Below are positions 2,184 to 47,069 of a stretch of 47,069 nt of DNA, in pieces (the first letter of the stretch is position 1; each line of letters starts with the position of its first letter). Origin of the DNA: a virus (taxonomy: Duplodnaviria > Caudoviricetes); IMG/VR virus record IMGVR_UViG_3300011116_000483, positions 1 through 47,069 of that record; one strand, 5' to 3'. The translations under genes and the position numbers were made by a program. The notes under the pieces were generated by a model. That model made no database searches and was not told the origin of the DNA. It was given only the letters and a program-made list of their open reading frames with translations.

Positions 2184-2629
2184 AGTTTCTCTCCACACTT
2201 CGGGCAGTAGGCGAACGTCACAATAGACCCGGCAGCAGTCTCAACCCCTTTGATGTGGTTGCATTCCGTTTGTGCAGGGCTAACTGGGCCATTTGTGCGC
2301 TCTGGTTGCGATAATGGGTCTGTGGTTGCTTCCGCTCCCCTAAAGAACTTCACTACGTCTTCCGGGTGCTTGTCACTCCACTCAGGCTGTGCTGAAATGT
2401 AACCGCAAGCCATGTAGAACAGGGGCCTCTCTGCTTCCCAAGCATCAAGCACTCGAATTATGTCTTGCAAGTATTCAGCGTAAAGGCAAGGCCAAGGGAC
2501 ATAACAATCATCGCAATAATCTTCATCATTTGGAGTAGGCGCCAAGCCGTTGTCATGCCTGCTTTTATTGTGGTATTCCATGTCATGCTTGACTTTGGCT
2601 CGCAGTTCGTCTCGTTGTTGCTGGTTCAT
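2180..2629 (-). CDS. modular Zn-finger-ended protein (MNQQQR...YCPKCGEKL)
   Basis: ATGA overlap at 2626-2629; CxxC motifs; N-terminal ~120 aa shared with 45478..45972. Confidence 0.75.
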   Translation of the reverse strand: MNQQQRDELRAKVKHDMEYHNKSRHDNGLAPTPNDEDYCDDCYVPWPCLYAEYLQDIIRVLDAWEAERPLFYMACGYISAQPEWSDKHPEDVVKFFRGAEATTDPLSQPERTNGPVSPAQTECNHIKGVETAAGSIVTFAYCPKCGEKL

Positions 2630-3017
2630 AGTTTGTCTCCACACTTAGCAAGGGCGTGGTAGCACACGCTTGTGTCCGTGCTGTCTCCGTAATCAATAAG
2701 TGAGGCAAGGTAGTTGCCGTTTTCCAAAAACCACAAAGTGTAAACCTGTGGTTTGCCGTATCGCCCGTATTTGTCGGTGAGAGATGAGGCAACCTTCGCC
2801 GTTGGAGAGTTGGCAAGTTCTTTGTCGTACTCCGCACAGTCAAGGTCTATCCACTCAACTGCCTTACCTTCAGTTTCCTCGGCAACAAAGTCGTGTGCCA
2901 TAGCAATTGCTCGGTTCATCGTTCCCACCTTTCATCAGCCAGCCACGCTTCTCCTGCTTCACAGAACTCTTTGGCAAGGGCGAGTTTGCTTGGCTCTTGC
3001 CCGTCGTATGTTGTGCC
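2265..3017. repeat. 753-bp direct repeat, copy 1 (copy 2 at 45608..46360)
   Basis: Offset 43343; by eye the only mismatches are at 2287-2288 and 2315. Confidence 0.95.
2626..2919 (-). CDS. hypothetical protein ending in KCGDKL (duplicated)
   Basis: Identical translation at 45969..46262. Confidence 0.75.
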   Translation of the reverse strand: MNRAIAMAHDFVAEETEGKAVEWIDLDCAEYDKELANSPTAKVASSLTDKYGRYGKPQVYTLWFLENGNYLASLIDYGDSTDTSVCYHALAKCGDKL

Positions 3018-6675: not shown

Positions 6676-6860
6676 TGCTCTCCTCCTTTAGGATACAACT
6701 TTGGAATACGGATGCCCTTGTTGGCAGCGAATTCCATACGCTGGTTCGGGGTCATCGCAACAAAAGCGTTCACCCCATCTTCCTCAATTTGCACGATTAG
6801 GAAATCGTTACGGTGAAAAAACTCACCTGTGTAAACGTCAACCAGATAGTTTTCTGCCAT
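6672..6860 (-). CDS. hypothetical protein
   Basis: Coupled ORF between the nuclease and erf. Confidence 0.7.
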   Translation of the reverse strand: MAENYLVDVYTGEFFHRNDFLIVQIEEDGVNAFVAMTPNQRMEFAANKGIRIPKLYPKGGEQ

Positions 6861-7723
6861 TAGTTACCCTCGCTTTCTGCCAGTACCGTGAGGTACGAGG
6901 CTTCGATGTGTGTTGCTCCTGCGTCCTGCTCGCACAGGGTACGGAAGGGGCAGTAATCGCACGCCCAGTACGAACCGGGGGTGATGTTCTTGTGGCTGAG
7001 GTCGTCCTCCACTACTGATGGCTGAACCAACAGGCCATCTTTGGTGTCCTCGGCAATTTGAGTAATGCGATTGATTTCCTCAAGCGCTGGGCCTTCCCAT
7101 TCATGACGGGGGAACCACCACTCCTGAGCAAACCGCTCGTAGGGGTCAGTGATGCCAAGGGTCTTAGCCTTGTTGACACTGACTGCCTCCTTCGCCAGTG
7201 AGATGAGGCCAAGGAACTCAACCTCAGGTTCTCCGCCTCGCTCAATGCCAATGGCGTTCATGCCTGCCTGCACAATGGCTGACCACTTCGGCCCCTTGGG
7301 TTCAGTGCGTTTGTAGTTGCCATACCCAGCCTGCGAGTTGAACACATACTGCCCAACCGTCTTGATTTCCAAAACCAACCCATTCCCAATCCCCAAAGGG
7401 CCGGGGATGTACCCGTCGCATGACCCGGACAGGTACTCGTTGACCTGCGACGCCACCTCGAACTGTGCGTTGGGTGCCTGCTCTGCGATTGCCTCTTGCA
7501 GGTGCTCGTGCAGCAGGGTGCCTAGGTTGGTGACCCAAGCGCTCGCTGCATCCCACGGCTCAGTAGTCGTGGCGTTGAGCGCCGAGTACTGCATCTTGCG
7601 TGAGCACCCGTGAGCATCAGAGTACCGAAACGGTGTCCCCTTTGCCGTTGGCTTTGGGCCACGGGCTATGTCCTCGTTCAGCCACTTGCGTGCAAGCAGG
7701 TGGGCAAATGCCATCTCTGTCAT
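6860..7723 (-). CDS. Cas4-like/RecB-family exonuclease with Fe-S Cys cluster
   Basis: S...C.R, GTLLHE, SGSCDG, LEIKT, C-terminal CDYCPFRTLC. Confidence 0.88.
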   Translation of the reverse strand: MTEMAFAHLLARKWLNEDIARGPKPTAKGTPFRYSDAHGCSRKMQYSALNATTTEPWDAASAWVTNLGTLLHEHLQEAIAEQAPNAQFEVASQVNEYLSGSCDGYIPGPLGIGNGLVLEIKTVGQYVFNSQAGYGNYKRTEPKGPKWSAIVQAGMNAIGIERGGEPEVEFLGLISLAKEAVSVNKAKTLGITDPYERFAQEWWFPRHEWEGPALEEINRITQIAEDTKDGLLVQPSVVEDDLSHKNITPGSYWACDYCPFRTLCEQDAGATHIEASYLTVLAESEGN

Positions 7724-11098: not shown

Positions 11099-12373
11099 CT
11101 AGATGTCCAACTCAGTCGTCACGGTTTTCGTCTCAGTGACGGTGAACCGTTGACCTGCCCACACTTGTCCGGCCAGAGGGTAGTTCAGGGCTAGGAACCT
11201 TGCCCAGTCGTGCTTGAGAGCAAGACGGTCAGCGTGGCTCTTAAACCGTGGCTTGCGAGTGAACTCGCAGGCTGCTGCTACCAGTTCGATGTCACCTAGC
11301 AACCGGTCAGTTGCGAGGGTACTACGAAAGATTCTGACCTCCACTGTGTGATTCCGGAGCGATACCGCATCGCTGTGGTTGCTCCCAGAGGTGCCTTGCG
11401 CCTTACGCTTGAGACGACGGAGGCCGTCGAAATCAGCGTAGTGGCAGTCACGCCCTGCTGCTCGTGTCCAGTCTGCCCGGAGAGTCCGGAACAGGTGGAG
11501 GAATCGGAGCAGGTGATACTCGCTGTCGAAAGACTCACGGTCAATGTGAACGTGAATTCCAACAGGGTGCAGGTCAGTGTTCCTGTCCCATGCTCGCACC
11601 CCACGGGACGTGAGTTCCGTGAAAGCGTTGATGAGCAGTGAGCGGTTACTGTGCCACACTTCCAGCGACAACGGTTGCGAGGTAATTTCGTAGCCGTTGT
11701 GCAGTGAGCCGTCGTGAGTAATCCAGATTCCGCCGTCAAGGTCAGCGAGGAGTTCGTAGGTGTCGTGTGCATTGGTCGCAACGTCCGTGCGACTGTCAGC
11801 ATTTTCGACCTCAATTTCCACGCCGAACTTGGAGCCGGTTCCGATAGGCGTCCAGCCCTGTGGAGGGATGGAGCCGTAGGAGTGGATGGCTGCTGCTGTG
11901 CACTGGTCATCTTCACTGTCGTGGTACTCGTCGCACTCTTCACAGTAAGCGAACCGGTCATCCCAGCACGTCTCGCAGTAAGAGTTGCCCCAGTCCGTGT
12001 AGCGTAGAGTGCTAGCACGTTGAGACTGTGCTTGTGAACAGCCCTCGCAGAATTCTGCGTAGTTGTCCGCACACGACTCGCACCACTCTTCAGTTGAGTG
12101 AACATAGTGGCGACTTACCCTGACGGTAATCGTCGAGTCCTGAGAGAATTCCTCGCAGTGCTCGCAGAAGTGAGCCTCTCTGTCACGACACGACTCGCAC
12201 CACTCGTCGTAGTCCACCGTGGTCAGGCCGTCTACCGTCCACTCGTCGCAGTTATCGCATTTCTCACGTCCGGACGACGAGTCGTCCTGAACCTTGAGTA
12301 GTGCGAGAGCGAGAATATCGGGAGCGTAACCCGTAGCCTCAATGAACGTATCGATGTTGAGTTCGTTGCTCAT
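11099..12373 (-). CDS. putative amidoligase (COOH-NH2 ligase) with N-terminal CxxC repeats
   Basis: FGVEIEVE, HDGSL..GYEITSQP, GIHVHI, TVEVRIF; multiple CxxC pairs. Confidence 0.88.
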   Translation of the reverse strand: MSNELNIDTFIEATGYAPDILALALLKVQDDSSSGREKCDNCDEWTVDGLTTVDYDEWCESCRDREAHFCEHCEEFSQDSTITVRVSRHYVHSTEEWCESCADNYAEFCEGCSQAQSQRASTLRYTDWGNSYCETCWDDRFAYCEECDEYHDSEDDQCTAAAIHSYGSIPPQGWTPIGTGSKFGVEIEVENADSRTDVATNAHDTYELLADLDGGIWITHDGSLHNGYEITSQPLSLEVWHSNRSLLINAFTELTSRGVRAWDRNTDLHPVGIHVHIDRESFDSEYHLLRFLHLFRTLRADWTRAAGRDCHYADFDGLRRLKRKAQGTSGSNHSDAVSLRNHTVEVRIFRSTLATDRLLGDIELVAAACEFTRKPRFKSHADRLALKHDWARFLALNYPLAGQVWAGQRFTVTETKTVTTELDI

Positions 12374-12605
12374 GGCAATTTCTCCCTTGTTTGTTTGTTT
12401 GTTGCACTCTCAATGCCGGGATATGCTCCGGACAATTGCCACTAGGTGGCGACGTGCCTACACTTGAGAGTAGTGGGAGGGTAGGGCTATGACACCCCTA
12501 GCACCTACGCTTGAGACGTACTACGGACATCCCGGACGGCATCCCGTCCTAAGGCGTCCACCGTCTACCGGTAGCGCTCCCCCCCCTAACAAGGGGAGGT
12601 TTTTT

Positions 12606-12624
12606 ATTCAGTTGTCAAGGTACT
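12606..12624 (-). promoter_or_regulatory. boxA-like antitermination motif, copy 1
   Basis: Minus strand AGTACCTTGACAACTGAATA resembles the extended rrn boxA of Gram-positive bacteria. Confidence 0.55.
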
Positions 12625-12845
12625 CGCACCGTACCGCTTGAGTTTTGTTATCGGCACTACTAGGCATCCCGGACGGCATCCCGTCCCGTGGCGACTAGCC
12701 GACTCAACCGGCCATAGTTAGAACCTCTCACTAGGTGCCACTGACTACCGTCGCAGTAGTGGCGGTGCCGTAACTGCCGTCGCAGTAGTGGCGGTGGCAG
12801 TGGGTGCCTAATGCCGTCGCAGTAGGAACCCGGTGCCGGGAGAGG

Positions 12846-12863
12846 TTCAGTTGTCAAGGTACT
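12846..12863 (-). promoter_or_regulatory. boxA-like motif, copy 2
   Basis: Identical 18-mer AGTACCTTGACAACTGAA. Confidence 0.55.
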
Positions 12864-12934
12864 TGCCGAAATTGCAACCGGGCGCCTGCATCGTCTCCGA
12901 TGCGGTGAGGCTAGGCCGGTTTCGGCATGACGAC

Positions 12935-12945
12935 AACGTAGCACA
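12935..12945 (-). promoter_or_regulatory. probable early-operon extended -10 promoter
   Basis: TGTGCTACGTT directly upstream of the structured leader. Confidence 0.5.
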
Positions 12946-12999
12946 CGTCCTAGAACGTTGTTGACCGATACCGTGAAACCCTAGTAATCCCTTGGCATT

Positions 13000-13330
13000 C
13001 TCAGTTTCGACCTTAGTGTCAACGGTACTGACAATTGTTTCTAGCCCTAGTTAGTGAGTGACACTTGCAAGGCGTCCCTAGGTGGCACTTGGTGGCACTT
13101 AGTGAGGATGACTAACAAGGGTTAGTAAGTGAGAGTTGCAAGCGGTTGCAAGTGAGAATGACAACGTGCAAGTGAGAGTCACAAAGTGCTAGCCATGCTA
13201 CATACTTATGCACTTGCCTGCATAATCATGCAGACTGCATGGTGTGCATAATTATGCGCTTGTTTGCATAATATACAGGTCAGGAATGGCGGAATCGACC
13301 GGGGGTGTGCCCTCGGGGGGGGGTTTCTAT
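13000..13330. other. low-complexity repeat tract ending in G-runs; possible genome terminus/pac region
   Basis: Repeated TTGCAAG, GTGAGA and TGCATA, then GACCGGGGG...G9, lying between the divergent operons upstream of terminase. Confidence 0.4.
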
Positions 13331-13457
13331 GTTATGTTAAAGACCCATTCATACATCCGCTCATTCTACGCTCACTGTATAACCACAGCGTGCCATGAGA
13401 GGTCCCTGAGATTCGTTCTAAGCCACGCTAACATTAAACGCTCGTAACGACATCACC

Positions 13458-13515
13458 ATATGTTTTTTATATATATAAATAAAAATAACTATAACTATAA
13501 ACACTTACTCTTTAG
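13458..13515. other. AT-rich patch, candidate origin unwinding element
   Basis: TGTTTTTTATATATATAAATAAAAATAACTATAACTATAA in an otherwise GC-balanced genome. Confidence 0.5.
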
Positions 13516-13539
13516 TAGGTAACTGGAACGCACTCACGC

Positions 13540-13826
13540 TTCGCTTAGAGTTATCCCAACTTCCTCGGTACTGTTTTTTACGAGGGTTGTTCCCTCGGCA
13601 TGACTCATCACATGCTCAGACCCGCATCCATCCGCGGTCCCCTTCCCAGCAGCATTAGGAGAGTGGCTACTGACAACGGGGTCCCGGCCTAGTGGGACAT
13701 AGAGGCAGTTACCCATCTGACGGGGATACTCCCTTACTAGGGGAGGTCGGCGCTACCGTTGCTCTTGCCTTTCGGCGCTAAGTGGGACTCTAAGTTGTGG
13801 GCCTTCTCCAAGGCCAAGTAGTTCGG
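13540..13826 (-). ncRNA. candidate ~300-nt structured non-coding RNA
   Basis: Long-range closing stem, about 8 hairpins, GAAA tetraloop on the minus strand, two loop-mediated complementarities, upstream TGGTAGTGT. Confidence 0.65.
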
Positions 13827-13878
13827 TATGTACACACTACCATATCCAAGGCCACCACAATACCATCTATGGTATGGT

Positions 13879-14133
13879 CATGACATGGACACCTTTGTGA
13901 ATGACATCCGGGCTTCGGTTGAGAAGCATATCACCGATGCGGGACCACCCGACGCAGCCATGCCATATCTGCTGCATTGGGTTGTTACCTTCTCAGTGGG
14001 CGACATGGATAACGAGGGTGTGGTCTACATTCGTTCGGTTACTCCCAAGGGCCAGCCACAGTACGTTACCAACGGGCTGATGAACGAGGCGTACGAAATT
14101 ATTAGCACGCAACATCTTCCTGACGAAGATTAG
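13879..14133 (+). CDS. hypothetical protein (homolog of 1417..1692); start at 13879 or 13885 uncertain
   Basis: MDTFVND...LLHWVV...GQPQYVTNGLM; TGGTATGGT -10 just upstream. Confidence 0.6.
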   Translation, partial: HDMDTFVNDIRASVEKHITDAGPPDAAMPYLLHWVVTFSVGDMDNEGVVYIRSVTPKGQPQYVTNGLMNEAYEIISTQHLPDED

Positions 14134-14198
14134 TGTGCTAAAGTAAACCAGCCGGGAGGGGGGGAACCCCTCCGCAGGCACCATTCAAGGGAGGAAGT

Positions 14199-14567
14199 AT
14201 GGCTACAGTGTCAGTCGTCGGCAACGTCGTCCGTGACCTAGAACTTCGGTTCGGTACTAACGGTGGTACGGCGTATGTCAAATTCAGTATTGCATGTAAC
14301 CGCAAGAAGAAGCGTGGCGATGAGTGGGAAGAAATCACTTCCTTCTTTGACGTTGTGTGCTTTGGAGACATGGCGGAAAACGCTGCTGCATCGCTGAACA
14401 AGGGAACTCGTGTGTTGGTCACCGGCCAACTTGATGTTACCAACTGGGAAAAAGACGACAAGAAGGGTACGTCGGTTCAGATTACCGCCGACGAAATCGG
14501 ACCGTCGCTCAAGTTTGCCACTGCAAGTGTCACTCGCAACGCATCGAACAGTCAGGAGGCCTTCTAA
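14199..14567 (+). CDS. ssb: single-stranded DNA-binding protein
   Basis: VVGNVVRDLELRF...FFDVVCFG.MAEN...KGTRVLVTGQL...ADEIGPSLKFATA (actinobacterial type). Confidence 0.95.
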   Translation: MATVSVVGNVVRDLELRFGTNGGTAYVKFSIACNRKKKRGDEWEEITSFFDVVCFGDMAENAAASLNKGTRVLVTGQLDVTNWEKDDKKGTSVQITADEIGPSLKFATASVTRNASNSQEAF

Positions 14568-14828: not shown

Positions 14829-16715
14829 ATGGCAATTACCCCTGCACAGATTGCTAAGTACTTTGACTTAGTAGGTGACGGTTGGAGTCAAGCCAAGGCT
14901 GCTGAAAAGGCTGGCTTCTCCGTCGCTACTGCTCGTCGCCTTGAGAAGAAATCCGAGGCTAGCACTGCTGCATCGCGTGCAGAACTCCGCACAAACAGGG
15001 CCAACGATAAACTCGGTGGACCTAAACGCTACGACCAACTGTCAGAAGAGGCTAAGAAAGCCTACAACGACTTTGGTTATTTCCAGAAACGCTACTTTGG
15101 GCGCATTGCTACGCCTTGGCAGGTAGAAGCAGCAGAGCAAATTGTCGCTTTGCTGGAAACTCCTGAGCGAGAGTACGTCGTTATCAACTGCCCACCGGGT
15201 GCTGGTAAGACAACTACCTTCTCGCATGACATTCCTGCGTGGCTCACAGTCCGCAACCGTGGAATCCGTGGGATGTTGGGGCACTCTGTTGCCCGTGAAG
15301 TAAAGAAAAACCTTGGTCGCTTAAAGCGTACGTTTGAATCTACGATTCCGTTTCAGGCTGACCCCGATGATGTCGCTAGGGGATTGGCAGTTGACGCAGA
15401 AAGCACGCTCGCACTTGACTTCGGTCGCTTTAAACCCGTGGCTAAAGACGTGTGGAATCAAGAGTCCCTGTTGGTTATGCAACACGACGACATTGGCACC
15501 ACTGCCGAAAAAGAATACACTTGGCAGGCTTATGGGGTGGACTCAGGTTTCATTGGTACGCGTTGCGACTTTGTTATCTGGGACGACCTTGTAGACCCAA
15601 GCAAACTTCGCACCGCAGAAGCCAAGGAAAATCTCGAGAATTTCTATGACGACGTTTGTGAAACCCGACTAGAGCCGGGTGGCCTGCTGGTCTTGATGGG
15701 CCAGAGAATCTCGTCTGATGACCTGTACCGCTACAACCTTGACAAGACTCTTCCCCTTGATGACGAAGAAGATTTGCTTGAGGATTTGAGCGAAGAAGAA
15801 ATCGAAGCCCTGCGTAACCGCAAGAAATATCACCACATTAAATTCAAGGCTCACTACCCAGACCGGTGTGTGCCAGAAAGCCACAAACGCACAGCGCCTC
15901 ATTATCCTGAAGGCTGCTTGCTTGACCCTCGTCGCCTTGACTGGAAAACTTTGTCAGGTCGAATTGCCAACGGCGCTGAGAAATTTGAAGTCATCTACCA
16001 ACAGGAGGACCGTGACCCCGGAAGCCAGTTTGTCAAAGAAGATTGGATTTACGGTCATAATGGATTCCCCGGGTGCGTTGACCGCAACAGGAATTTTTGG
16101 GAGTTCCCGACACACCTCGACCCATCGCGGTGCATCGTTTATGTCACTGCTGACCCTAGTCCGACAATGTACTGGGCCGTCGAACTCTGGATTTATCATC
16201 CGGAATCAGAGTACCGCTATCTAATTGCCATTGAGCGTCGGCGCATGGAAGCACCAGAATTTCTTGACTGGTCTTACACCGAGAACAAGTTTACTGGCCT
16301 CATGGAAGATTGGCAGCAACGCGCTACCACTGCTGGCTGGTTTATCCCGACTTGGATTATTGAACAGAACGCTGCCCAAAGGTTCTTGTTGCAGTACGAC
16401 CACATGCACAGATGGCGCGCTAAGTGGGGAGTTAAAGTCATTCCCCATTCAACTGGTGCCAATAAAGCAGACCCAAATTACGGGGTTTATACGCTTGGTC
16501 CACATTATGAGTTTGGACGTGTTAGAATACCTTATACGGATATCGCTAAAACTGACGCGATTAAGTTGATTTCCGAAGTCAAGAACTACCCCCACGGCAG
16601 GACGGACGACACGGTTATGGCTCAATGGTTTGGTGAATGGAACCTGCCTGCCCTAAGCGTGCCTCGTGTCAACCTCCAACGACAGAAGCGCCCCACTTGG
16701 TTAGTCGGGGCTTGA
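14829..16715 (+). CDS. terL: terminase large subunit with N-terminal HTH
   Basis: Walker A PPGAGKTT, Walker B FVIWDD, YQQ, nuclease motifs ADP and TDDTVMA. Confidence 0.92.
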   Translation: MAITPAQIAKYFDLVGDGWSQAKAAEKAGFSVATARRLEKKSEASTAASRAELRTNRANDKLGGPKRYDQLSEEAKKAYNDFGYFQKRYFGRIATPWQVEAAEQIVALLETPEREYVVINCPPGAGKTTTFSHDIPAWLTVRNRGIRGMLGHSVAREVKKNLGRLKRTFESTIPFQADPDDVARGLAVDAESTLALDFGRFKPVAKDVWNQESLLVMQHDDIGTTAEKEYTWQAYGVDSGFIGTRCDFVIWDDLVDPSKLRTAEAKENLENFYDDVCETRLEPGGLLVLMGQRISSDDLYRYNLDKTLPLDDEEDLLEDLSEEEIEALRNRKKYHHIKFKAHYPDRCVPESHKRTAPHYPEGCLLDPRRLDWKTLSGRIANGAEKFEVIYQQEDRDPGSQFVKEDWIYGHNGFPGCVDRNRNFWEFPTHLDPSRCIVYVTADPSPTMYWAVELWIYHPESEYRYLIAIERRRMEAPEFLDWSYTENKFTGLMEDWQQRATTAGWFIPTWIIEQNAAQRFLLQYDHMHRWRAKWGVKVIPHSTGANKADPNYGVYTLGPHYEFGRVRIPYTDIAKTDAIKLISEVKNYPHGRTDDTVMAQWFGEWNLPALSVPRVNLQRQKRPTWLVGA

Positions 16716-18711: not shown

Positions 18712-19162
18712 AACTGGTAAAGGTGGAAAAGTAGACGGCGCTGTTGGTAAGACGTATTCAAACCGAACCGACCTGAACGCTGCTACCAAGACTGTACCAA
18801 ATCAAGAGTACGGTAAAGCAACGGCACAACGCATGGCTATGGCAAATGTTCCAATGGCTGCTGCACCTGCTCAACCAGCAGCGCCTACGCCAGCAGGACC
18901 GGCTGCTCAACGACCACAAGAATACTCTGCTCCTGCTCCTGCCCCCACTCCGGGGCCGGGGGGACTTCCTTGGCTTCATGAAACTGCCAGACCGGATGAG
19001 CCATTGACTGCTGGTTTGAATGGTGGTGGGATGCCAATGATGGACCCTGCACAACAGCGAATGGCGTATTTATCTAGTACACTTAAAGACCTAGCCAATT
19101 CTCCGGGAGCAACCCCTGAGACTATTCGGATGGCTACTCTCTTAGGAGCGCTGGGGTCTTAA
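18704..19162 (+). CDS. virion-associated protein
   Basis: Position after portal; YSNRTDL and T.RPDEPLTAG; Pro/Ala-rich. Confidence 0.65.
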   Translation: MPRTGKGGKVDGAVGKTYSNRTDLNAATKTVPNQEYGKATAQRMAMANVPMAAAPAQPAAPTPAGPAAQRPQEYSAPAPAPTPGPGGLPWLHETARPDEPLTAGLNGGGMPMMDPAQQRMAYLSSTLKDLANSPGATPETIRMATLLGALGS

Positions 19163-22100
19163 TGGGTCAGTTTGATGAATCCGCTTTTACTGAGCATCCA
19201 ACTCCAAGTCTTACTGATGGTTTAACTCACGCTGCCAGAACTGTTCCGGGACTTTCCCCAGAACACGCAATGATTGCTGCAAGAAGTGACAACCCAAATG
19301 TAACTGCTCAATCTCTTGCTGGACTTAATCTCTTGTCTGGTGCATACGCCAGCCACGTTGCCAACACTGCCCTTAACAAGCAACTTCTTACAGGACAATA
19401 TAGCCCCGGTGCTCAAGGTCCTCTAAGGGCCAACCAAACAGAAATGGCCCCATCGTATCGTCCTGCTCCGTATGTTGCTCCCGGTCCAGTTGGCGCTCAA
19501 GGTACTACGCATCCGCAATCAGCCATAAACACTATTGTTCCTACGCAGGGACGAGGTGCACAAGGCCAGTTTGGTATTGACACTGGTGGTTACAACGGGC
19601 CATTGATGAACCAGCAGCAAATTAATAATTCTCTTTATCAAATGAACAAAACAGATTGGGACAGGCGTTGGGACAATACGCATAAAAAATTAAACCAATG
19701 GTCTGACAATATTGGTGAAGCGTTTGGTCAAATTTTTGGAGTTGTTGGCGGTAGTCTTGATGTCGCTGGTAGCGCGCTAATTGGATTTTCAAATCAGACT
19801 CCGGGCGCAGCGTGGACTCAAGGTTACGACCAACTTCACAATTTTGGTGCTTCGGGTGCCAGTTACATTGCTAAAGACCTTTTTGGTATTGGTGAATACG
19901 CCCTTAAGTTGCCGGGCAGAATTAACCAACTTGGTTCAGATTTTGCTGAGGCTCCCGGTGGCACGCTTGCCCGCATGAGGCACGATGTTGCTGCTGATGC
20001 CCATAGCGTTCTTTACGCACCAGACCATTTCTACCGCTACATGGTGCAAACCGTCCACGACAAGGGATGGTCATACGCGCTTGGTGAAATGGCTGCAATG
20101 ATTGCTATGGCTTTTGGCACCGGTGGCGAAGGTACAGTAAACGCAGTCAGGCAATTGGGTACGGCTGGAAAATCATTTGCAGAAATGACAACGCCGCTTG
20201 CACTTCGTGGCACAAAACTTCCACTTCGTGATGGAGCCGTCATTGGAGACGAAAGCGCTAGCCCTCTTGCTAAGTTCTCTGGTCTTAACGATACCACTCG
20301 TGGCGCTTATGAGCGCTACCGGTCTATTGTAGAGTCTAAGGCAGTTGCAGGAACGCGCTTTGCGTTTAAGCCAATTACTGAACCATTGCGTCGTCTTGCT
20401 GTTATGAGCGCTGACCCCGGTGTTGCTCTTGGTGAAGCAATGGCAATGAACCACCCACTTGGGATAGATGCTGAACGCTGGAAGCAAACGGAAAACCAAG
20501 ATACTTGGATTAACCCATACACGGGCGTGGCTGCTTCACTAGGACAGCAAACCATGTTGATGATGGGAATTGACCCTAAGTCGTGGGAAGGTTCAATCCT
20601 GAGCGGTGGCCTTGACTTTTACAGCAAGTTCATTATGCCTGACCCACTTGGCGCTGGCCTTCAAGTGTTTACAACTGCTCGCAGCCTTGAGGGTTGCAAA
20701 GGCTTGCTTGGGCAACTTTGGGGTGGCACTGGTATTCGCAGCGCTAGTGACTACGACCGCATCTACAAGCAATACGGGGCTTTCCGTCGCACTGTCCAAC
20801 TAATTGCTCGTTCAAGTTCTGCTGACCTAATTCGTCTTTACAAGGGCAAACTGTCGCCAGAGATGCTGACAAGGTTTGGCAACGCCAAGACTGTTGAAGA
20901 AGTTCTTGACGTGTTTAAGTCAGAAGCAGCAGCAGTTGAGTTCCAGACTACCAACATGGCTACGCTTGGTGGGTACGCCCGTACTAAGTACGCAATGAAA
21001 GATTATCTGCTTCGCGACCCCACGCTTACGGCTGAGGGTGCTGTTAGAAAAGGCATCCTGCAAGAGCGTTTGTTTGCAAGTACGCCTTACATTGCTATGC
21101 GTAACGTTGGCGCAAGCATTGCCAAGACAATGACCCAGCGTGGTTTCTACCTTTCAGACACAGCAGGTGGAACCACAGAAATTCTTGTTGACAAGATTGT
21201 TGATGGCAGCATCCAATCTGCTCACGTTCTTGCTGACCGTCTTACCCGTATGGGTGTTAGCCAAGATGTCGTTAAGGTGACACTTGAGCACCTGCTTGAA
21301 GCGTCCCGTTTGGGAGAAACCCAACGGTATATGCAACTTGCAGTCAACGCTCAAATCAAGGCTGGCCCTCGGTTTGTTCAAGCGCTTCTTCGCGACCCAG
21401 CAATGGGGCCTGAATCCATTGTAGTCCAGCACATTGCAGAAGAATCCATGAAGGGTCGCCTCCACGTTGATGCTGTTGGCACCAAGGGCAAATATGTTCA
21501 CGATGACCGAGATTCTGAGTTAGTTAACTTTAGCGGTGAAACAGTTGCTACTGCTGGTGAAGGAACCCCACACTTGCAATCTGTGCCGTTGCTTGACCCT
21601 GTACAGATTCGTAGGGCAATGCGTGTTCTTGTTCGCCTGTCCAAAGACCCAGTTCTCATGGACCTTGGCGTTGCCATGATGATGGCAAACAAGGCCGATG
21701 GTTACACGCTGGACTTAATCAAAACCTTTATTCGTGATTACAAAATTTCAGGCAAAAAAGTTGAAGATGCAATTACTAAAATCTTTGAAAACAAAGTTGC
21801 CAACAAAACATCCAAGGGTGTATGGGCAGGTCAAAGAATTGGTCAGAATGTAACTCTTTTCAGTGGTGACGCTCGCGATGTGTTTTTGCAAATGTTCCGT
21901 GACCACGCTGTTGATGCTCTCGGCAACAAAGTTCCTCTTGCTGAACAGATTAACAACTTCCGTGGCGAACTTCAAAACCTTGCCAACAATGGCCTGCACC
22001 CAATTAGCCGTGGTGAGGCTGCCGTTCTTTCGACGTGGCTTGATGGTCACCTGACAACCGGGTACAAGCCTGACCTGTCTGACATTTACCTTGGGTCAGC

Positions 22101-25100
22101 AGAACGTACTCCGTTGACGCCAGCAGAACGCGAAACAATTGAATCTGAAAAGTATGGCGAACGCAAGTTAGAACTGATTGGTGACCGCAAGTTCCTTAAG
22201 TGGTCTGACGCTCGCAACCTTCGCATCAACGCTAACTTGACAATGGATGCAATGAACCACGTTGTCAACGACATGTTCTTTAAGCCAGCCACGTTGAGTT
22301 CCCCGTCATGGGCATGGCACGTTGGTATTTCGGAAGGCATCCTTAACGCGTTTCGTTATGGTCCAATCAACATGTTTGAGGCACACTTTGCTGCTCAGTT
22401 TGCACAGAAGGCCAAGAAGTACAGCCTTGCTGATGGCGTTGACCACAACCATGTTCGCAATGCCGTTTCTTCATTGCTTCAAGACATTGACAAAAAAGAA
22501 CTTGAAGCAATGTTTGATTCTGACGTTCTTCAAATTGCTCGTAAAGAAGCGTTGGCTGGTGGGTACGTCCAAGGAAACCAGTATGGCCGACAGGAACTTG
22601 AAAACCTCCACAACGAAATTATGGGTTCCGTCAAGGAGCATGGCGGAGTAAGCATCAATTTACATGGTAAGTCATATCCTTCTGCTGGTTATGGAGTTGC
22701 CACAGGTTCTAAAAACAACGTTGTAATTAACGCTAGAGACATGTTTGAGGATGAAGAAAAAGCAAAGAAAATTCTTTTCAACTACGTTAAACAAGTTTCT
22801 GAAAACATGTCAAATAAAGACAAGGATTTGGTTCTTGGCATTTGGCACGACACAAATGATTTAACTGACCCAGTTTTAATGAACGAATTTGAAAAAAAAC
22901 ATTTTCTTGAAACCACAAGTAGCACCACTTTAAAAATTGATGACAAAAAAACTTTTGCCGAAATTACGGGTGGTGGGGTAGACCGCAAGGGGTTAGACAA
23001 ACTTAAACAAGATGGAAAAATTACTAAAGAAGAATACGAAGAAATTCTTTCTAAAGCAGGGTTGGGCAAAATCCACCTTGATGTGACAGAACGCATTGGC
23101 AATCTGACTGACGCTATGAAGTTAGGTGCAGAGCGTGACCAGATTTCAATTTTTGATTTTGAAAACTTTGCAGAATATGCAACAGGTGGTTCGGGCGTTG
23201 GTGGGTTTAACGCTTTTGGGAAAAGGCAATCTCTTCGTAAAAAAATTCCTATTCATTTTGACGATAAAGAACTTCTCAAAGATTACGCAGAGCGTACGCA
23301 GCGTTTAGACCGAGAAGGTTTCAAGCAAAAAGTTGCCATTGCTTACATGCGCGCGCAGCGTGCTAAGGCTGGCGTCATGCTTGGTGTTCGTGAATCCATT
23401 GTTCACGGCATGGCTGGCGAAGCCAAGGCCCGACGCTTGATTGACGATGCTACCGACCTTGTGTTGTTGCATCCCGGTGGTATTCACCCAGCACTGTCGG
23501 CTGCTCACACTCGCTACCTTGGCGAAATTTCTGGTCACGTTGACGACATGGAACTTTCACCAAAAAATAGCAAGACAAAAGTTGTTGACCCAGCCAACCC
23601 ACTGGCAAAAGAAAAGACTCGCCGTTGGAAAACTGGGACCTTTGAAACTTACAAGCGTGGTAACCGAGGCCACCTTAACGCCATGCAGCATTACATTGGC
23701 ACTGCCCTTAACACCGAACAGCACAAGTTCATTGCCAATGCGTTCCAAGAGGCAATCAATAAGATTGGCGTTAAAGAATTCCAACGCCAGATTACGGCTG
23801 CCAAGAACGCAGCCGGTGGAGACATTCGTAACGCTGCCATTGTTCGTGACATCGAAGCACAATTTGAGGCCCACCTTCGGGCACAGCCTGAGGAATGGCG
23901 CAACCGTTTCCTTCGCTCTAAGTTTGTTTCTAGGAACGGCCTTGAAAAATACGACATCCGTGACCCACTGAAAGACTGGGCACGAGTTTCTGTTAGCACC
24001 AACATGAACACTTGGATGTCTGGCGAACGCGATATTACCCACTTGCCAATCCTAAAGCAAATTTCAGAAGGCAATGTTAAGGACCTGCAATGGTTTAAGG
24101 ACTACGCCTCTCGCAAGGGCATGACTACGATGCCTGACAACATTATTGGTCCACGCATCATGGACGGTGGTAGCGGACGATTCTGGGCACAGAACCTTGC
24201 TGACAAGAGCCACGAGAAAATGCTTGGTCCAATGGTGGACTACCTTTCACGTCGCCCTGCCTACTTGTTGACTTACCACAACGAGATGGAAAACATCCGT
24301 AAAACCAATGGTGTGTACAAGACCACCATCGGTGAGCACAAGCAGGGTTTGATTGAACGGGTGAAGTTCCTTGAAACTGAAATCCGAAAGTTTGACCCAT
24401 CTGGCACCTTTGATGCTTCGCTCAAAAAACTTCACGCAGCACAAGCAGAGTTTGACCGGTTAGAAATTGAAGGTCGCTCTATTGCTGCGTCTGCTGTGCC
24501 ATCGGCAGTACGTCACGCTTTTTACGAAGAACACATTGCCGAACTTAACACGCACATTGCTTCCTTGGACAAAGAAATTGAGATGCTTACCAAGACCCTT
24601 GGTAAAGAAGCACGCAAGGTCATGGCAGGTTACAAGGCTGCAATGGTTGCACATGGCGCGCAAATGAACGCGTACATTGGCGCAATGAAGGAGTACAACT
24701 ACGCCCTTGCACAGCACGAGCGCCATCGTGCAATCATGATGGCAAACGAAGGTTTGTCATTTCCAACATCACAACAGCACATTGAAAACTGGCAGTTCCA
24801 CGCCCCGATGCAAGACATGTACGGTGTAGATTATGACTACATTGACCCGTACTGGCACTCATTGGCTGAGAGCAAAGATGCTGCAAGACTGGAAGCATTA
24901 ACTGAAGGTGGACTTTTTTTACCAAATCCAATTACATATCGTTCTATTGAAAAAGGTCTTATCCGTGATGAATTGTTTAGAGCAGGTATTGAGATAACGG
25001 AATTTGAATTTAAATGTTTGCAAGCGTATGTTGCCTACGATTACAAACCTATCAACGAATACTTGCGCCTTGACCAAGCAAGCCGTCGCGCTATGGCTAA

Positions 25101-28100
25101 TACAAAAATTGAAAGTAGAATTGGCAAAAAATTAGATATGTCATACAAAGACATAGTAAAAGCATTAGATTCAGTTGTTTCAAAAGTTGAACTACAAAAA
25201 CCCTTAACTGTTTTTAGAGGCGTTGACCATCGTAAATATGCCGTTGGTGAACTTACGCCAGAGCCGGGATTCATGTCTGCCAGTGTAGACTTTGATGCTG
25301 CTCACAGTTTTGCAGTTAAAACAGGAAGAAGTGCTGAACTTGTTGGTGGTACTGGGGCAACCATTCTTGAAATTCAACTTAGTCCCGGACAAAAACTTTG
25401 GCCTCGCAATTCAGAAGGCGAATTAACGCTTCCTCGTGGAACTCATTTGTATGTTCACGAAGTGACAACAGCAACACCAAGTGAATTATACCCAGACGAT
25501 TTTCATGTGGGTCTGACCGCGTATCTTGATACGCCAATTCAACATGTCATTGCCACTGTGGTTGATGCAAGAACCGCTAGGGCACTTAATGGTCGCTACG
25601 CTTCACCTGAGGTTAAAGCCAAATACAAAGAAGCAGCGACAAAACTTGAAAGTGCTCGTGCATCTCTTATTGCGGAGCAGCGAAAGACTTTTGGTTATGC
25701 TGGTACAAATATTAACCCAACTGTTTCTGTTACCCCAGAATGGGCGCAAACTGAATTAACGCGTCTTATTGAAACTCATAAAAAAGATATTGCAAAACTT
25801 GAAACAATTGAAGAAAAATTATGGAATCCAAAACCATTTATTGAAAATGGGTTTACTGTTCCAGCCGAACCTATCAAACCAATTTTGGTTGAAGATGAAT
25901 TTACTAAAAACATTTGGCGCAAAACTGGTTTAAGAATAGGCCAGCCCGGTAATTACGCAGGCAAGGCTATTAAAAAAGCAGAGTGGCTTTCAATTGAAGA
26001 ACTTCTTAAACATGGCGACCCCGGCCCTTATTTGTTTGGTGCAGGGTTTGAAGAAAAACTTCAAGAAATTACTAAAAAAATAATTGAAGATGGGTTTTCC
26101 ATGCCATTTGAGTTGTTTATAGATGAAGCAACAGGCAAAGCAGCATTTAGTGCTGCTGAGACTGCCGTCATTAGAGAATTAAATGACCTTGGAATTACGG
26201 CTATGCCTGTAAAAATTGGCAAAAGAACTGGTTCAATAACCGACGAAAAAGTAAACACTTGGGCAAAACTTTCCAATCCATTCCCAATGGACATGCCTTT
26301 TGATATGTATAAATATGCAACTGATAGATATAGATTTAAAGATTTTGGTTTAACACCAGTTGGGGAAACACCAGATTTAAACGGCGGTACGCTTGGTTCG
26401 TATTGGTCAACTAAAAACAAAATTGAAAAAACTAGAAAATTTTTAACGGGTGGCAAAACATATTACCAACGTAATACCTTGGCAAAGTTGCAGGCCCACG
26501 TTGAAAACGTTGGCAAGTTGAAGTCTACCCATGAGTATACCCAAACGCTTATCAACGAAAACCGCGCTGCTCGCATGGATGCGTTGGAACGTATGCGGGA
26601 TGCTGCTGCTGGCGTACACCATATCCACGTCACCCCAGAAATGATTGACGAGTACGCTGCCAAATACCCTTCCGTAAAAAAACACGTTGACGCTTACAAG
26701 GCCAACAGAAGGGCTGTTTACGGCGATGACTGGATGCCATCTTCCACTGGTTCTTGGTCAGGGCTTCAAAGCACAATTAACTGGAACAAGAACTTAATTG
26801 CTAGCCAAGGCGCATGGCACAAACTGGAACTTACCAAATTGCAGCACGTCTACGACAACTTGCAACTAAGTGCTGATGGTAAGAGGATTAACCAATACAT
26901 CCAAGAGCACATGGAATTGCAAGGCGACCCAAGTCTTATTGGTGGGGTCCAATCTAAGCATTACTACGACAGTGATGGCAACTTGCAGCAAGCAAAAATC
27001 CCGTTCCATCCTGTGCAGGGTGGCATGATGCACGAGGCTCAGGCTCAGGTTCTTGCTGAAACCCGTGCTGCTCGCAAGATGCTTGGCGAAGTCCACAACC
27101 CTTCGGACAAGACCAACTTTGAATACGCCATGCGTTACTTCGCTCCGTTCTATTTTGCCCAGAACCAAGCATGGCGACGTGCTGCTCGCTTGATGGCAGA
27201 GAACCCAGCAGCCTTTGAGAAGTATCTCAAGTTGACCCTTGGCATGACCAACTACGCTCAAACGGCTGCCGCGGAAAACGGTAGCCCGATGGTGACCATC
27301 CCCGGTTCTCAGTTGCTCGGTCGCTCGCTGTTTGGTTTGGACATGGGTCTTGGGTTGAACATTGGCTCCATGAACACAACCACCCTGTTCGGCATGAGTG
27401 GTAAAGATGAAGGCGCAGCAGGGATGATGCAACACATCCTCAAGCCTGAGATGGGACCCCTCCTTACTATCCCTGCCAAGTTACTGACCGGTAGCATTGA
27501 TTACGCTGCTGGCATGGTCGGGGGCCAAGATGCAGAGATGAAGGTCAACGCTTTCTCTGACTGGCTGCAAGGTGACATCGCATCACGCCAACCGCTTATG
27601 GCGCAACTGGTTCCAAACACCCTTATCCGCCACCTCTACCAACTTGCCGTAGACGGTCACATTGGCCTTGGCGACTCGCCTGACAGCGCTGGCGACTCGG
27701 TTGGTAACGGCTACATCTCAACTCGATTGCAAGTGTGGAAGAACATCACCGAAGAAACCCTCAAGCAACTTGGTGAGGAAATGGAGCAAAACGGTTTCCA
27801 CGGCTACACGGCTAAGGAAATCCGTAAGTTCAAGCGTGAAAGCCCCGGCCTATACACGGTGCTTGAGCAGATGAAGTGGGCCATGAAGTCGCACAGCGAC
27901 CCACGCTTCTTGCAGGACATCGCAAACAAAGCCAACCGTGACACCGCAGTATTGTGGTCACTGACCACTGCTGCAAGTTTCTTTGGTCCAACGACAGTTA
28001 CCTCTACATCAGGTTTGCAGCAACTTGGTATTCAACTGAACCAAGAATTGCAAGCCGACATTGCTAAATTGGGAACCACCGAAGGCTACATTAAGTTTGC

Positions 28101-28866
28101 TAAAGACCACCCAACAGATTCGATGTCGCAAATCTTCCAGACCACCAGTCCGTACAACGTCACCTACCCTTCGACTGCACCGACTTTGGAGTTCATTCAG
28201 AACCACGGCGAGTTTGTTTTGCAACACCCAACCATTGCTGCCTTCTTTGTGCCTCGTCCAAATGACGCTCCATACGACGAAGCAGCACATGCGGTTGAGA
28301 TGGACCTTCAATTGCGAGGACGCTCAAACATGGCGCAGATGTCCAAGTCTGCTTTGATTGCGTGGGGTAACAACTGGTACTACAACTACATTATCCCGTT
28401 TGCAGACCAGACCTTTGGTAAGGACTACACCCAAGACAAGGCTACTTACCTTTCAGGCTCCAAGAAGATGTACTCGCAGTACAACCCGATGTGGGCGAAC
28501 TACCATGATACTGACAGGCTTTCCCATGCCGACGATGCGTACCGTGAGTTCTCAAACTTCATGAGCAAGGGTTACAAGTATTCGTACAAGCCTGCCGAAG
28601 CCGACAATTCGTTTAAGCCAATCGAATTGCCAGTTGCCGTAAGGGACATGGACCGCCCAACCCAAGACTTGTTCTACTACGCAGCACAAATGGCAATCGT
28701 GTACAAGTCTTACGTTGAGGCATATGGAAATTCAAGCGACAGGAGTGGCATGAAGCAACAATGGTATGATTACTGTGAAGCAATGGTCAAAATTAATCCC
28801 GGCTTGCGTTCTATCGCCAACTCCATGTTTATTCACCTGCCCGGAGAAGGAGTGAACAATGGCTGA
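19162..28866 (+). CDS. giant internal virion/ejection protein with ADP-ribosyltransferase and degenerate ParB-like domains
   Basis: 3234-aa ORF; YKPINEYLR, VFRG, FMSAS, SEGE.LPRG at about 25020-25460. Confidence 0.85.
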   Translation: MGQFDESAFTEHPTPSLTDGLTHAARTVPGLSPEHAMIAARSDNPNVTAQSLAGLNLLSGAYASHVANTALNKQLLTGQYSPGAQGPLRANQTEMAPSYRPAPYVAPGPVGAQGTTHPQSAINTIVPTQGRGAQGQFGIDTGGYNGPLMNQQQINNSLYQMNKTDWDRRWDNTHKKLNQWSDNIGEAFGQIFGVVGGSLDVAGSALIGFSNQTPGAAWTQGYDQLHNFGASGASYIAKDLFGIGEYALKLPGRINQLGSDFAEAPGGTLARMRHDVAADAHSVLYAPDHFYRYMVQTVHDKGWSYALGEMAAMIAMAFGTGGEGTVNAVRQLGTAGKSFAEMTTPLALRGTKLPLRDGAVIGDESASPLAKFSGLNDTTRGAYERYRSIVESKAVAGTRFAFKPITEPLRRLAVMSADPGVALGEAMAMNHPLGIDAERWKQTENQDTWINPYTGVAASLGQQTMLMMGIDPKSWEGSILSGGLDFYSKFIMPDPLGAGLQVFTTARSLEGCKGLLGQLWGGTGIRSASDYDRIYKQYGAFRRTVQLIARSSSADLIRLYKGKLSPEMLTRFGNAKTVEEVLDVFKSEAAAVEFQTTNMATLGGYARTKYAMKDYLLRDPTLTAEGAVRKGILQERLFASTPYIAMRNVGASIAKTMTQRGFYLSDTAGGTTEILVDKIVDGSIQSAHVLADRLTRMGVSQDVVKVTLEHLLEASRLGETQRYMQLAVNAQIKAGPRFVQALLRDPAMGPESIVVQHIAEESMKGRLHVDAVGTKGKYVHDDRDSELVNFSGETVATAGEGTPHLQSVPLLDPVQIRRAMRVLVRLSKDPVLMDLGVAMMMANKADGYTLDLIKTFIRDYKISGKKVEDAITKIFENKVANKTSKGVWAGQRIGQNVTLFSGDARDVFLQMFRDHAVDALGNKVPLAEQINNFRGELQNLANNGLHPISRGEAAVLSTWLDGHLTTGYKPDLSDIYLGSAERTPLTPAERETIESEKYGERKLELIGDRKFLKWSDARNLRINANLTMDAMNHVVNDMFFKPATLSSPSWAWHVGISEGILNAFRYGPINMFEAHFAAQFAQKAKKYSLADGVDHNHVRNAVSSLLQDIDKKELEAMFDSDVLQIARKEALAGGYVQGNQYGRQELENLHNEIMGSVKEHGGVSINLHGKSYPSAGYGVATGSKNNVVINARDMFEDEEKAKKILFNYVKQVSENMSNKDKDLVLGIWHDTNDLTDPVLMNEFEKKHFLETTSSTTLKIDDKKTFAEITGGGVDRKGLDKLKQDGKITKEEYEEILSKAGLGKIHLDVTERIGNLTDAMKLGAERDQISIFDFENFAEYATGGSGVGGFNAFGKRQSLRKKIPIHFDDKELLKDYAERTQRLDREGFKQKVAIAYMRAQRAKAGVMLGVRESIVHGMAGEAKARRLIDDATDLVLLHPGGIHPALSAAHTRYLGEISGHVDDMELSPKNSKTKVVDPANPLAKEKTRRWKTGTFETYKRGNRGHLNAMQHYIGTALNTEQHKFIANAFQEAINKIGVKEFQRQITAAKNAAGGDIRNAAIVRDIEAQFEAHLRAQPEEWRNRFLRSKFVSRNGLEKYDIRDPLKDWARVSVSTNMNTWMSGERDITHLPILKQISEGNVKDLQWFKDYASRKGMTTMPDNIIGPRIMDGGSGRFWAQNLADKSHEKMLGPMVDYLSRRPAYLLTYHNEMENIRKTNGVYKTTIGEHKQGLIERVKFLETEIRKFDPSGTFDASLKKLHAAQAEFDRLEIEGRSIAASAVPSAVRHAFYEEHIAELNTHIASLDKEIEMLTKTLGKEARKVMAGYKAAMVAHGAQMNAYIGAMKEYNYALAQHERHRAIMMANEGLSFPTSQQHIENWQFHAPMQDMYGVDYDYIDPYWHSLAESKDAARLEALTEGGLFLPNPITYRSIEKGLIRDELFRAGIEITEFEFKCLQAYVAYDYKPINEYLRLDQASRRAMANTKIESRIGKKLDMSYKDIVKALDSVVSKVELQKPLTVFRGVDHRKYAVGELTPEPGFMSASVDFDAAHSFAVKTGRSAELVGGTGATILEIQLSPGQKLWPRNSEGELTLPRGTHLYVHEVTTATPSELYPDDFHVGLTAYLDTPIQHVIATVVDARTARALNGRYASPEVKAKYKEAATKLESARASLIAEQRKTFGYAGTNINPTVSVTPEWAQTELTRLIETHKKDIAKLETIEEKLWNPKPFIENGFTVPAEPIKPILVEDEFTKNIWRKTGLRIGQPGNYAGKAIKKAEWLSIEELLKHGDPGPYLFGAGFEEKLQEITKKIIEDGFSMPFELFIDEATGKAAFSAAETAVIRELNDLGITAMPVKIGKRTGSITDEKVNTWAKLSNPFPMDMPFDMYKYATDRYRFKDFGLTPVGETPDLNGGTLGSYWSTKNKIEKTRKFLTGGKTYYQRNTLAKLQAHVENVGKLKSTHEYTQTLINENRAARMDALERMRDAAAGVHHIHVTPEMIDEYAAKYPSVKKHVDAYKANRRAVYGDDWMPSSTGSWSGLQSTINWNKNLIASQGAWHKLELTKLQHVYDNLQLSADGKRINQYIQEHMELQGDPSLIGGVQSKHYYDSDGNLQQAKIPFHPVQGGMMHEAQAQVLAETRAARKMLGEVHNPSDKTNFEYAMRYFAPFYFAQNQAWRRAARLMAENPAAFEKYLKLTLGMTNYAQTAAAENGSPMVTIPGSQLLGRSLFGLDMGLGLNIGSMNTTTLFGMSGKDEGAAGMMQHILKPEMGPLLTIPAKLLTGSIDYAAGMVGGQDAEMKVNAFSDWLQGDIASRQPLMAQLVPNTLIRHLYQLAVDGHIGLGDSPDSAGDSVGNGYISTRLQVWKNITEETLKQLGEEMEQNGFHGYTAKEIRKFKRESPGLYTVLEQMKWAMKSHSDPRFLQDIANKANRDTAVLWSLTTAASFFGPTTVTSTSGLQQLGIQLNQELQADIAKLGTTEGYIKFAKDHPTDSMSQIFQTTSPYNVTYPSTAPTLEFIQNHGEFVLQHPTIAAFFVPRPNDAPYDEAAHAVEMDLQLRGRSNMAQMSKSALIAWGNNWYYNYIIPFADQTFGKDYTQDKATYLSGSKKMYSQYNPMWANYHDTDRLSHADDAYREFSNFMSKGYKYSYKPAEADNSFKPIELPVAVRDMDRPTQDLFYYAAQMAIVYKSYVEAYGNSSDRSGMKQQWYDYCEAMVKINPGLRSIANSMFIHLPGEGVNNG

Positions 28867-45481: not shown

Positions 45482-45972
45482 GGCTTTGCCCCACACTTGA
45501 TGCAGTAGTCGCGACGGATGCCAACAAGTGCTTCACCCTGTCTTGACCATTCTCGAAACTGGTGCTTGCACTCTACGTTCTGCCCCTTAGGTGGGTATTC
45601 CGCAGTATCCGTTTGTGCAGGGCTAACTGAACCATTTGTGCGCTCTGGTTGCGATAACGGGTCTGTGGTTGCTTCCGCTCCCCTAAAGAACTTCACTACG
45701 TCTTCCGGGTGCTTGTCACTCCACTCAGGCTGTGCTGAAATGTAACCGCAAGCCATGTAGAACAGGGGCCTCTCTGCTTCCCAAGCATCAAGCACTCGAA
45801 TTATGTCTTGCAAGTATTCAGCGTAAAGGCAAGGCCAAGGGACATAACAATCATCGCAATAATCTTCATCATTTGGAGTAGGCGCCAAGCCGTTGTCATG
45901 CCTGCTTTTATTGTGGTATTCCATGTCATGCTTGACTTTGGCTCGCAGTTCGTCTCGTTGTTGCTGGTTCAT
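45478..45972 (-). CDS. variant of 2180..2629 with a different C-terminal Zn finger (YCIKCGAKP)
   Basis: Shared N-terminus; diverges after SPAQT. Confidence 0.75.
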   Translation of the reverse strand: MNQQQRDELRAKVKHDMEYHNKSRHDNGLAPTPNDEDYCDDCYVPWPCLYAEYLQDIIRVLDAWEAERPLFYMACGYISAQPEWSDKHPEDVVKFFRGAEATTDPLSQPERTNGSVSPAQTDTAEYPPKGQNVECKHQFREWSRQGEALVGIRRDYCIKCGAKP

Positions 45973-46802: not shown

Positions 46803-47068
46803 GGCGTTGCCTCCCTCACCACATAACCGTCCACAACCTCGTATCCCTCTGGTAGCAGGGTGTCCTTGTCACCACGGCAGTTGGTGAGGTCGGCACACCA
46901 GAGGTTGGCACTCGCAAGGTTGGCATCCGTGAGGTCGGCACTCGCAAGGTTGGCATCCGTGAGGTCGGCACCCGTGAGGTTGGCACCCCAGAGGTTGGCA
47001 CCCGTGAGGTTGGCACCCCAGAGGTTGGCACCCGTGAGGTTGGCACCCCAGAGGTTGGCACCCGTGAG
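46799..47068 (-). CDS. pentapeptide-repeat protein (5'-truncated by window edge)
   Basis: 15-bp tandem repeats read [15 protein letters not shown]...[11 protein letters not shown] (A[N/D]Lxx). Confidence 0.9.
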
Positions 47069-47069
47069 G

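Follow-up and report, generated by a model that had tools for sequence, protein, structure and literature searches.

A predicted structured RNA upstream of terL in an uncultured phage shares a core hairpin with cluster A mycobacteriophage RNA origins

Some cluster A mycobacteriophages of the non-RepA parABS kind have prophage origins marked by an RNA. Wetzel et al. 2020 (PMC7157519; cited here, like the papers marked "in part" below, for part of its text) report that such ori regions express a noncoding RNA (ncRNA) reverse to parA and that stable lysogeny of Alma and LadyBird depends on them. Regions of about 600 bp suffice for plasmid replication in five phages, no open reading frame (ORF) being required, and ori-deleted cluster A phages grew normally in the lytic cycle. 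The term "secondary structure" is absent from the main text of that paper, where the RNA origins are described without structure or mechanism, and our literature search found no structure for the cluster A ori RNA. Here we analyze a 47,069-nucleotide stretch of viral DNA (Caudoviricetes; IMG/VR record IMGVR_UViG_3300011116_000483), called the window throughout. On its minus strand, at 13544-13828, it carries a predicted structured ncRNA of about 285 nt next to the genes ssb and terL. Judged from its sequence, this RNA is by its core hairpin a relative of the known RNA-origin kind, short of full membership.

The conserved element and its link to cluster A origins

The element is a conservation island of 285 positions, both ends of which are predicted. 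It is identical at 281/285 positions (98.6%) in the relative L020 and at 248/285 (87%) in L016, against 75-85% and 45-81%, respectively, in four flanking segments (the upstream DNA, an AT-rich patch, the next ORF and ssb). L020, L016 and L017/L018 (TerL 98, 93 and 86%) all carry it. An earlier note, made from the letters of the window alone, had proposed here a new folded RNA, either a primer pointing into an AT-rich origin or a packaging or regulatory RNA, and had named shuffled controls and covariation among homologues as checks. Single-sequence folding is better than that of shuffles only modestly (z = -1.98 for the minus strand, with 8 of 200 shuffles equally good; z = -1.59 for the plus strand), and the support for the element comes from its homologues. 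The minus strand folds better than the plus strand in all four sequences, 92.2% of the alignment cells are paired, and double changes occur in 8 of 79 pairs as compared with 3.1 in shuffles, a count from four sequences and a structure derived from the window itself. The note had also seen no credible ORF. A 60-aa ORF (13534-13716) does overlap the element; it is not conserved, since stops interrupt the L016 and L017 copies. The plus strand was considered as the transcript and is favored by one U-rich helix, but promoter, fold energies and homologues favor the minus strand. Taken at the sequence level, a structured minus-strand ncRNA is supported.

As the earlier note expected, Rfam has no family for this RNA: with Rfam 15 neither the window nor any of 11 related loci reaches a gathering match, all E-values being at chance level, and ARAGORN finds neither tRNA nor tmRNA in the window. 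Likenesses to hammerhead, tmRNA, group I/II, RNase P and Y RNA were discarded, being not conserved in L017 or unmatched in Rfam. The large phage RNAs of Rfam (GOLLD, ROOL, raiA, manA) have a multi-junction fold and kissing loops like the window RNA, but neither these nor others in Rfam 15 match the window or its relatives. With blastn the element yields only chance similarity to cultured phages (a 29-nt match), TerL gives no match in tblastn, plasmid searches return none or chance matches, and two further pattern scans chance matches only.

A pattern drawn from the window's lineage matched mycobacteriophage 20ES upstream of parA. The signature hairpin P5 (13712-13724), which forms the family core and consists of a G-C stem whose 7-nt loop has the consensus GUYAGAK, is present in four of the five tested ori regions (LadyBird, RedRock, Alma and Gladiator; Et2Brutus lacks it). 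It lies there on the strand reverse to parA, which is reported as transcribed, and inside both deletions that destabilize lysogens, LadyBird 25900-26299 and Alma 26463-26959 (PMC7157519, in part). The 13 nt of P5 are identical between window and LadyBird, and between Gladiator and the type C RNAs described below. By eye, the same two kinds of variation of the P5 stem occur in cluster A and the window's lineage, and type C and cluster A have a further helix motif in common. In a profile search based on 8 sequences from cluster A and Rahul alone, the best window match is at 13724-13687 (E = 0.087; next 3.8). Over 1.27 Mb this profile places near the top the sites upstream of terL in L013, L225, L226, L020, L016 and L017, two off-site matches standing among them. 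A profile of 81 core loci from elsewhere (95 distinct loci minus 14 that look coding) has its sole window match at 13724-13683 (E = 0.018) and finds nothing in G001, G002, G006, the Et2Brutus ori and three cluster A right ends.

Besides P5, the window RNA and the cluster A ori RNA have in common the spacing to the next hairpin, a 5′ hairpin and a looped one directly ahead of the core, and neither comes with a conserved ORF or a Rep gene; the window holds no repA, and its 60-aa ORF is dispensable to judge from the broken copies. The remainder of the RNA differs, as the alignment covers model positions 50-87 of 207 and not the full length. The window phage further differs in that no parABS cassette lies beside the RNA, ParA and ParB being absent from the window, and the RNA sits instead at an early/late promoter junction beside terL. 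Unlike cluster A, the phage is uncultured, podovirus-like and free of replication genes, and its use of the RNA may be lytic.

Parts of the RNA and its relatives beside terL

The RNA is preceded by an extended -10 promoter (TGnTAnnnT, 13834-13842, minus strand) with a predicted start near 13828, which is kept in the window, L020, L016 and L017, the four sequences differing at n positions only (alignment, by eye). The helices, complementary loops and extended -10 of the earlier note all exist where it placed them (by eye), save that the GGCCTT/AAGGCC hairpin begins at 13800, not 13799. This 5′ hairpin, P0 (13800-13815), keeps 6/6 pairs with one double change and is also found in the type C and cluster A ori RNAs. 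The 5′ strand of the closing helix (13783-13794) pairs with 13544-13558 according to fold and covariation, and L017 keeps the helix with minus-strand G-U pairs. Then follow, within 13748-13776, a GNRA-tetraloop hairpin (13767-13776) and a small hairpin (13748-13758), both invariant in 4/4 sequences, where covariation is uninformative. The stem of P4 (13729-13745) is likewise invariant, and its loop is predicted to kiss that of P7. This loop pairing (13688 with 13736) survives in L017 by two compensatory changes, and L016 has lost part of it (by eye). P7 (13681-13698) starts about 11 nt after P5, a spacing also seen in LadyBird, Alma and Gladiator, and has double changes in 3/5 pairs; the long hairpin P8 (13639-13680) has them in 3/12 pairs and is 80% paired. 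Two pairings of the note did not survive comparison: the inner closing helix 13674/13756 is broken in L016 and L017, where 13674-13680 pairs with 13639-13645 instead, and the loop pairing 13616/13716 is broken in the same two sequences (by eye). The 3′ domain (13567-13637), predicted from single-sequence folds, consists of a hairpin (13622-13637) and a junction that is closed by 13567-13573 with 13617-13622 and contains the hairpins 13598-13615 and 13581-13597. L017 retains all helices of this domain after a two-column shift (by eye), and the unshifted alignment scores 80-100% paired. Double changes in the P4-P7 kiss and in the 3′ junction were read by eye.

Downstream of the RNA lies the AT-rich patch (13458-13517). 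It is indeed the most AT-rich stretch, its 60-mer scoring 0.87 against 0.78 for the best elsewhere in the window. As part of an origin into which the RNA points it is weak: the AT fraction falls from 0.83 in L020 and 0.73 in L016 to 0.47 in L017 and 0.43 in LadyBird, and the patch is kept in L001, which has no RNA. At the place of the patch, L017 has a perfect DnaA box downstream of the RNA (position ~1750). Comparison of relatives reveals two conserved DNA motifs separate from the RNA (13301-13311 and 13354-13374, within 13301-13374), the first of which is also present in the RNA-less relatives L003, L146, L153 and L217; they are possibly a packaging or genome-end site. A second extended -10 (13870-13878, plus strand; by eye) stands back to back with the first and is also found in L016. 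To judge from the sequence it is likely to drive a leaderless late operon from 13885 (a DUF7213 ORF, ssb and terL).

Phages with TerL identities of 41-57% carry other structured RNAs, types B to E, at the same position and strand, six loci being of type B and about 44 of type C. In 20 type C sequences double changes occur in 9/22 predicted pairs, and 45 of 46 type C pattern matches lie within 3 kb of terL or portal. All types have a G-C stem around a loop of the GUYAGAK consensus (shorter in type B) and a similar extended -10 at a conserved, fixed distance. A strict core rule is satisfied on the minus strand upstream of terL in 52 of 87 loci, a count that includes the window, retains near-duplicates and uses a rule written after the sequences were seen; the controls gave 0 in 253 kb of opposite strand and 1 in 547 kb of terL-portal DNA. 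In about nine further loci the core contains one A-U pair or has an altered loop (by eye). Among the 35 misses some contigs end early or differ in arrangement, and L001, L003, L145 and L146 are without the core. Short versions with promoter, type B-like long-range pair and tail motif, and without the core hairpin, are seen on the minus strand of L153 (~700-900) and L217 (~6800-6920); on sequence grounds we regard them as natural deletion variants. In type B RNAs (L148, L175, L176, L182, L200) we observed by eye a covarying P4-P8 loop-loop pair and a 5′ hairpin loop that pairs with the 3′ tail.

Farther afield a stricter core pattern occurs in at least 120 loci, 95 of them distinct, and we estimate about 200 in the collection. 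In unrelated phages (L239, L262, L266, L275, L284, L291, L249, L251, L254, L270) the core adjoins a terminase gene or sits behind whiB in an early operon. Given 27 segments with the core, RNAalifold recovers only the invariant P5 stem, which is fixed by the search pattern and hence gives no covariation evidence. Covariance model R1 recovers only the four type A sequences, that is, those of the window's kind; model R2 has one mis-registered helix and still finds its positive control (E = 2.7e-33). We found no description of the family in the literature, although part of the PMC10690425 supplement and the PMC5737381 supplement fell outside the search and may hold it. Six searched supplement files of PMC10690425 contain no match, and the part seen of 10.64898/2026.09.22.753630 nothing relevant. 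Whatever its function, Rfam lacks this family of large structured phage RNAs.

Possible functions of the RNA

We suggest, with somewhat less than even confidence, that 13544-13828 encodes a folded initiator or primer RNA at which host enzymes could fire an origin free of dedicated protein. Host sigma-A RNA polymerase would transcribe leftward from 13828. The 5′ part would fold during transcription, with P4 and P7 kissing and P5 exposed, and the 3′ part would remain paired to its template as an R-loop. The host's DNA polymerase I (Pol I) could then use the retained 3′ hybrid as primer in analogy to ColE1 RNA II, after which the phage SSB, Erf, Cas4-like nuclease and RusA would support recombination-linked replication. 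Transcription, hybrid formation and priming at the element are steps that we infer. In ColE1 itself, RNA II acts through RNase H and PriA steps. The RNA might serve lytic growth or else a carrier state like that of a plasmid.

The initiator reading is attractive because the core hairpin lies in tested cluster A ori regions. In agreement with a lytic origin, the Gordonia phage Rahul, whose 26 genes include an integrase but none annotated for replication, has the core together with several of the ori RNA's 3′ motifs (by eye). No polymerase, primase, helicase, Rep, integrase or ParAB is recognizable among 54 window ORFs compared with PHROGs and 60 compared with Pfam, in keeping with the phage without primase of the earlier note. 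Its idea of an RNA origin is strengthened by the core hairpin common to the cluster A RNA origins; the likeness to ColE1 RNA II does not extend beyond function. What is shared is the proposed mode only, a folded transcript as primer for host Pol I (PMC7157519, in part); we found no sequence or structure likeness and, by eye, no antisense RNA I-type promoter. A sigma-70 scan, which likewise overlooked the extended -10 sites, found no plus-strand promoter inside the element.

Several observations weigh against an initiator. Only about 40 nt of the RNA recur in the tested origins, the E-values of both profiles are modest, and the ori of Et2Brutus is functional although it has no core. Wetzel et al., in the part cited, neither mutated the hairpin nor showed priming, and lytic growth of their ori deletions was normal (PMC7157519, in part). 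The A4 phages hold the core in the right-end early leader yet encode their own helicase (Kampy). Within the window, the AT patch is not a conserved feature, 12300-14300 contains no DnaA box, and the plasmid-prophage setting of cluster A cannot be recognized, ParAB, integrase and a clear repressor all being missing; the window may also be incomplete. The main unexplained result is the RNA-less relatives. Neither R1, R2 nor the core profile matches L001 (TerL 80%) or the complete genome G002, and among 81 ORFs from these relatives there is no Rep or primase that could replace the RNA. A single "primase" row among these ORFs is a methyltransferase match.

A broader proposal, possible but rather doubtful in our view, is that the family (~200 viral contigs) forms a widespread, undescribed phage RNA class built on one conserved hairpin. 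The class would act as a general protein-free initiator by which small phages that have no replication genes could use host enzymes alone at a lytic origin, the cluster A origins being an offshoot. The initiator reading would offer a candidate answer to how replication starts in actinophages that have no polymerase, primase or Rep genes, and such RNAs are a possible source of small RNA-based replicons. The conserved hairpin and the covarying loop-loop pair are specific targets for mutation in a system that works in Mycobacterium smegmatis.

Two alternatives stay alive because the window RNA has the map position of an early leader. In A4 mycobacteriophages the core lies about 650 bp from the right end, in the early leader (Arturo; most of the 50 matches listed, 154 records), and it may serve as a module in RNAs whose functions differ. 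The first alternative, which we hold unlikely, is a cis-acting antiterminator like HK022 put: P4 and P5 of the nascent RNA would bind host RNA polymerase during elongation and carry it across about 1.1 kb of repeat-rich non-coding DNA to the early operon at 12373. The put RNAs are two adjacent stem-loops of ~70 nt that lie just after or ~270 nt after early promoters and need no phage protein (PMC9378689, in part). The window RNA directly follows an early leftward promoter, its common unit is two adjacent hairpins, and P4 and P5 come about 85-115 nt after the predicted start, a likeness of architecture and not of compared sequence. The core also occurs in early operons of Rahul and of Rabbitrun/Trax/Neville. 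Of the 81 core loci, 33 have an extended -10 at a distance of 20-130 nt upstream; the opposite strand gives 19. Yet put is proteobacterial and short, the window RNA has ~285 nt with a pseudoknot, and conservation of 285 nt at 87-99% would be left unexplained. Terminator-like sites were found on the plus strand only (5/5, consensus scan). Moreover, downstream antitermination fails at the LadyBird ori because the RNA runs head-on into genes 33-31, with no same-strand gene behind it.

Unlikely too, and slightly more so, is an abundant, stable early RNA that would act in trans as protein decoy, in host shut-off or against defense, like the P-left RNA of L5 and D29. This ~500-nt RNA of L5, D29 and StarStuff, with a similar one cited in Kampy, is stable, toxic, partly not deletable and the most abundant transcript (PMC5712189, in part); strong expression upstream of Kampy gene 88 (PMC4626039, in part) and again the D29 peak (10.1101/2025.11.21.689395, in part) are on record. 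The window RNA agrees in map position and direction, as the first product of an early promoter that points leftward, back to back with the late operon; the core is present in the A4 version, and patchy presence among relatives fits an accessory function. However, the right ends of L5, LadyBird and Et2Brutus are without the core, so that the toxicity data do not concern the core-bearing family, and we found no target. In the presumed host phylum the exact core was found in only 16 genomes out of 301 (15 without the unpublished G264), which argues against a copy of a universal host RNA. The L5-type P-left RNA differs further in its stoperators and in its end, a tRNA-like T-arm with an acceptor-like stem (L360, at L5 51197-51110, L361 and L362; by eye). 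This tRNA-like end lies within or adjoins the segment reported as not deletable (PMC5712189, in part).

That the conserved signal is folded single-stranded DNA, used in lagging-strand initiation or packaging, is very improbable. Covariation fits RNA and single-stranded DNA alike, ssb is near and no transcript was seen, but the promoter at a fixed distance in all types, the better minus-strand folds with GNRA and T-loop-type hairpins, and the transcription of the cluster A homologues (PMC7157519, in part) all favor RNA.

A packaging RNA of the phi29 kind would be expected to accompany its cognate terminase and portal in every case. We give the least credence of all to such a packaging or virion RNA, with kissing loops that would join copies into a portal-bound ring: the element adjoins the packaging-like motif, terL or portal is near at nearly all type C loci and the loops are complementary, but the RNA is absent from L001/G001 (80% complete) despite a TerL 80% identical and from the complete G002, is present in relatives at 41-57%, and in cluster A the core sits mid-genome beside parA, far from cos, so that the packaging role of the earlier note is unlikely.

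The phage and other features of its genome

The left arm of the window encodes WhiB, RusA, Erf and the Cas4-like nuclease, the right arm SSB, TerL, portal, a 3234-aa protein and the major capsid protein. Sequence comparison suggests an actinobacterial host because relatives of WhiB and TerL sit in bins labeled Acidimicrobiia and Actinomycetes, although bins of other groups are listed too. The sequencing runs listed for the window are of DNA from freshwater, sediment and soil, with no RNA run among them.

The window is likely a complete genome. Its longest repeat, with no other long one, is a 753-bp duplication (2265-3017 and 45608-46360, 99.6% identical), and a tandem repeat occupies its end (46816-47069); both suggest that the assembly is mosaic or over-run. 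We identified no separate TerS in the window. The N-terminus of TerL (14829-14950) has a helix-turn-helix-like segment with a weak match to Pfam HTH_3 (E = 0.045), possibly a fused small-subunit function. In the 3234-aa protein (19162-28866) residues 1944-2104 form a predicted ADP-ribosyltransferase domain (Pfam PF03496, E = 1.7e-10), which suggests an ejected protein that modifies host proteins; we take T4 Alt to be a parallel. Two distant DUF7213-like ORFs are found, one per arm (1417-1692 and 13885-14133). Finally, 12373-13300 is a non-coding segment of about 900 bp that contains inverted repeats and several families of direct repeats, varies between strains and may be a genome-end or regulatory region.
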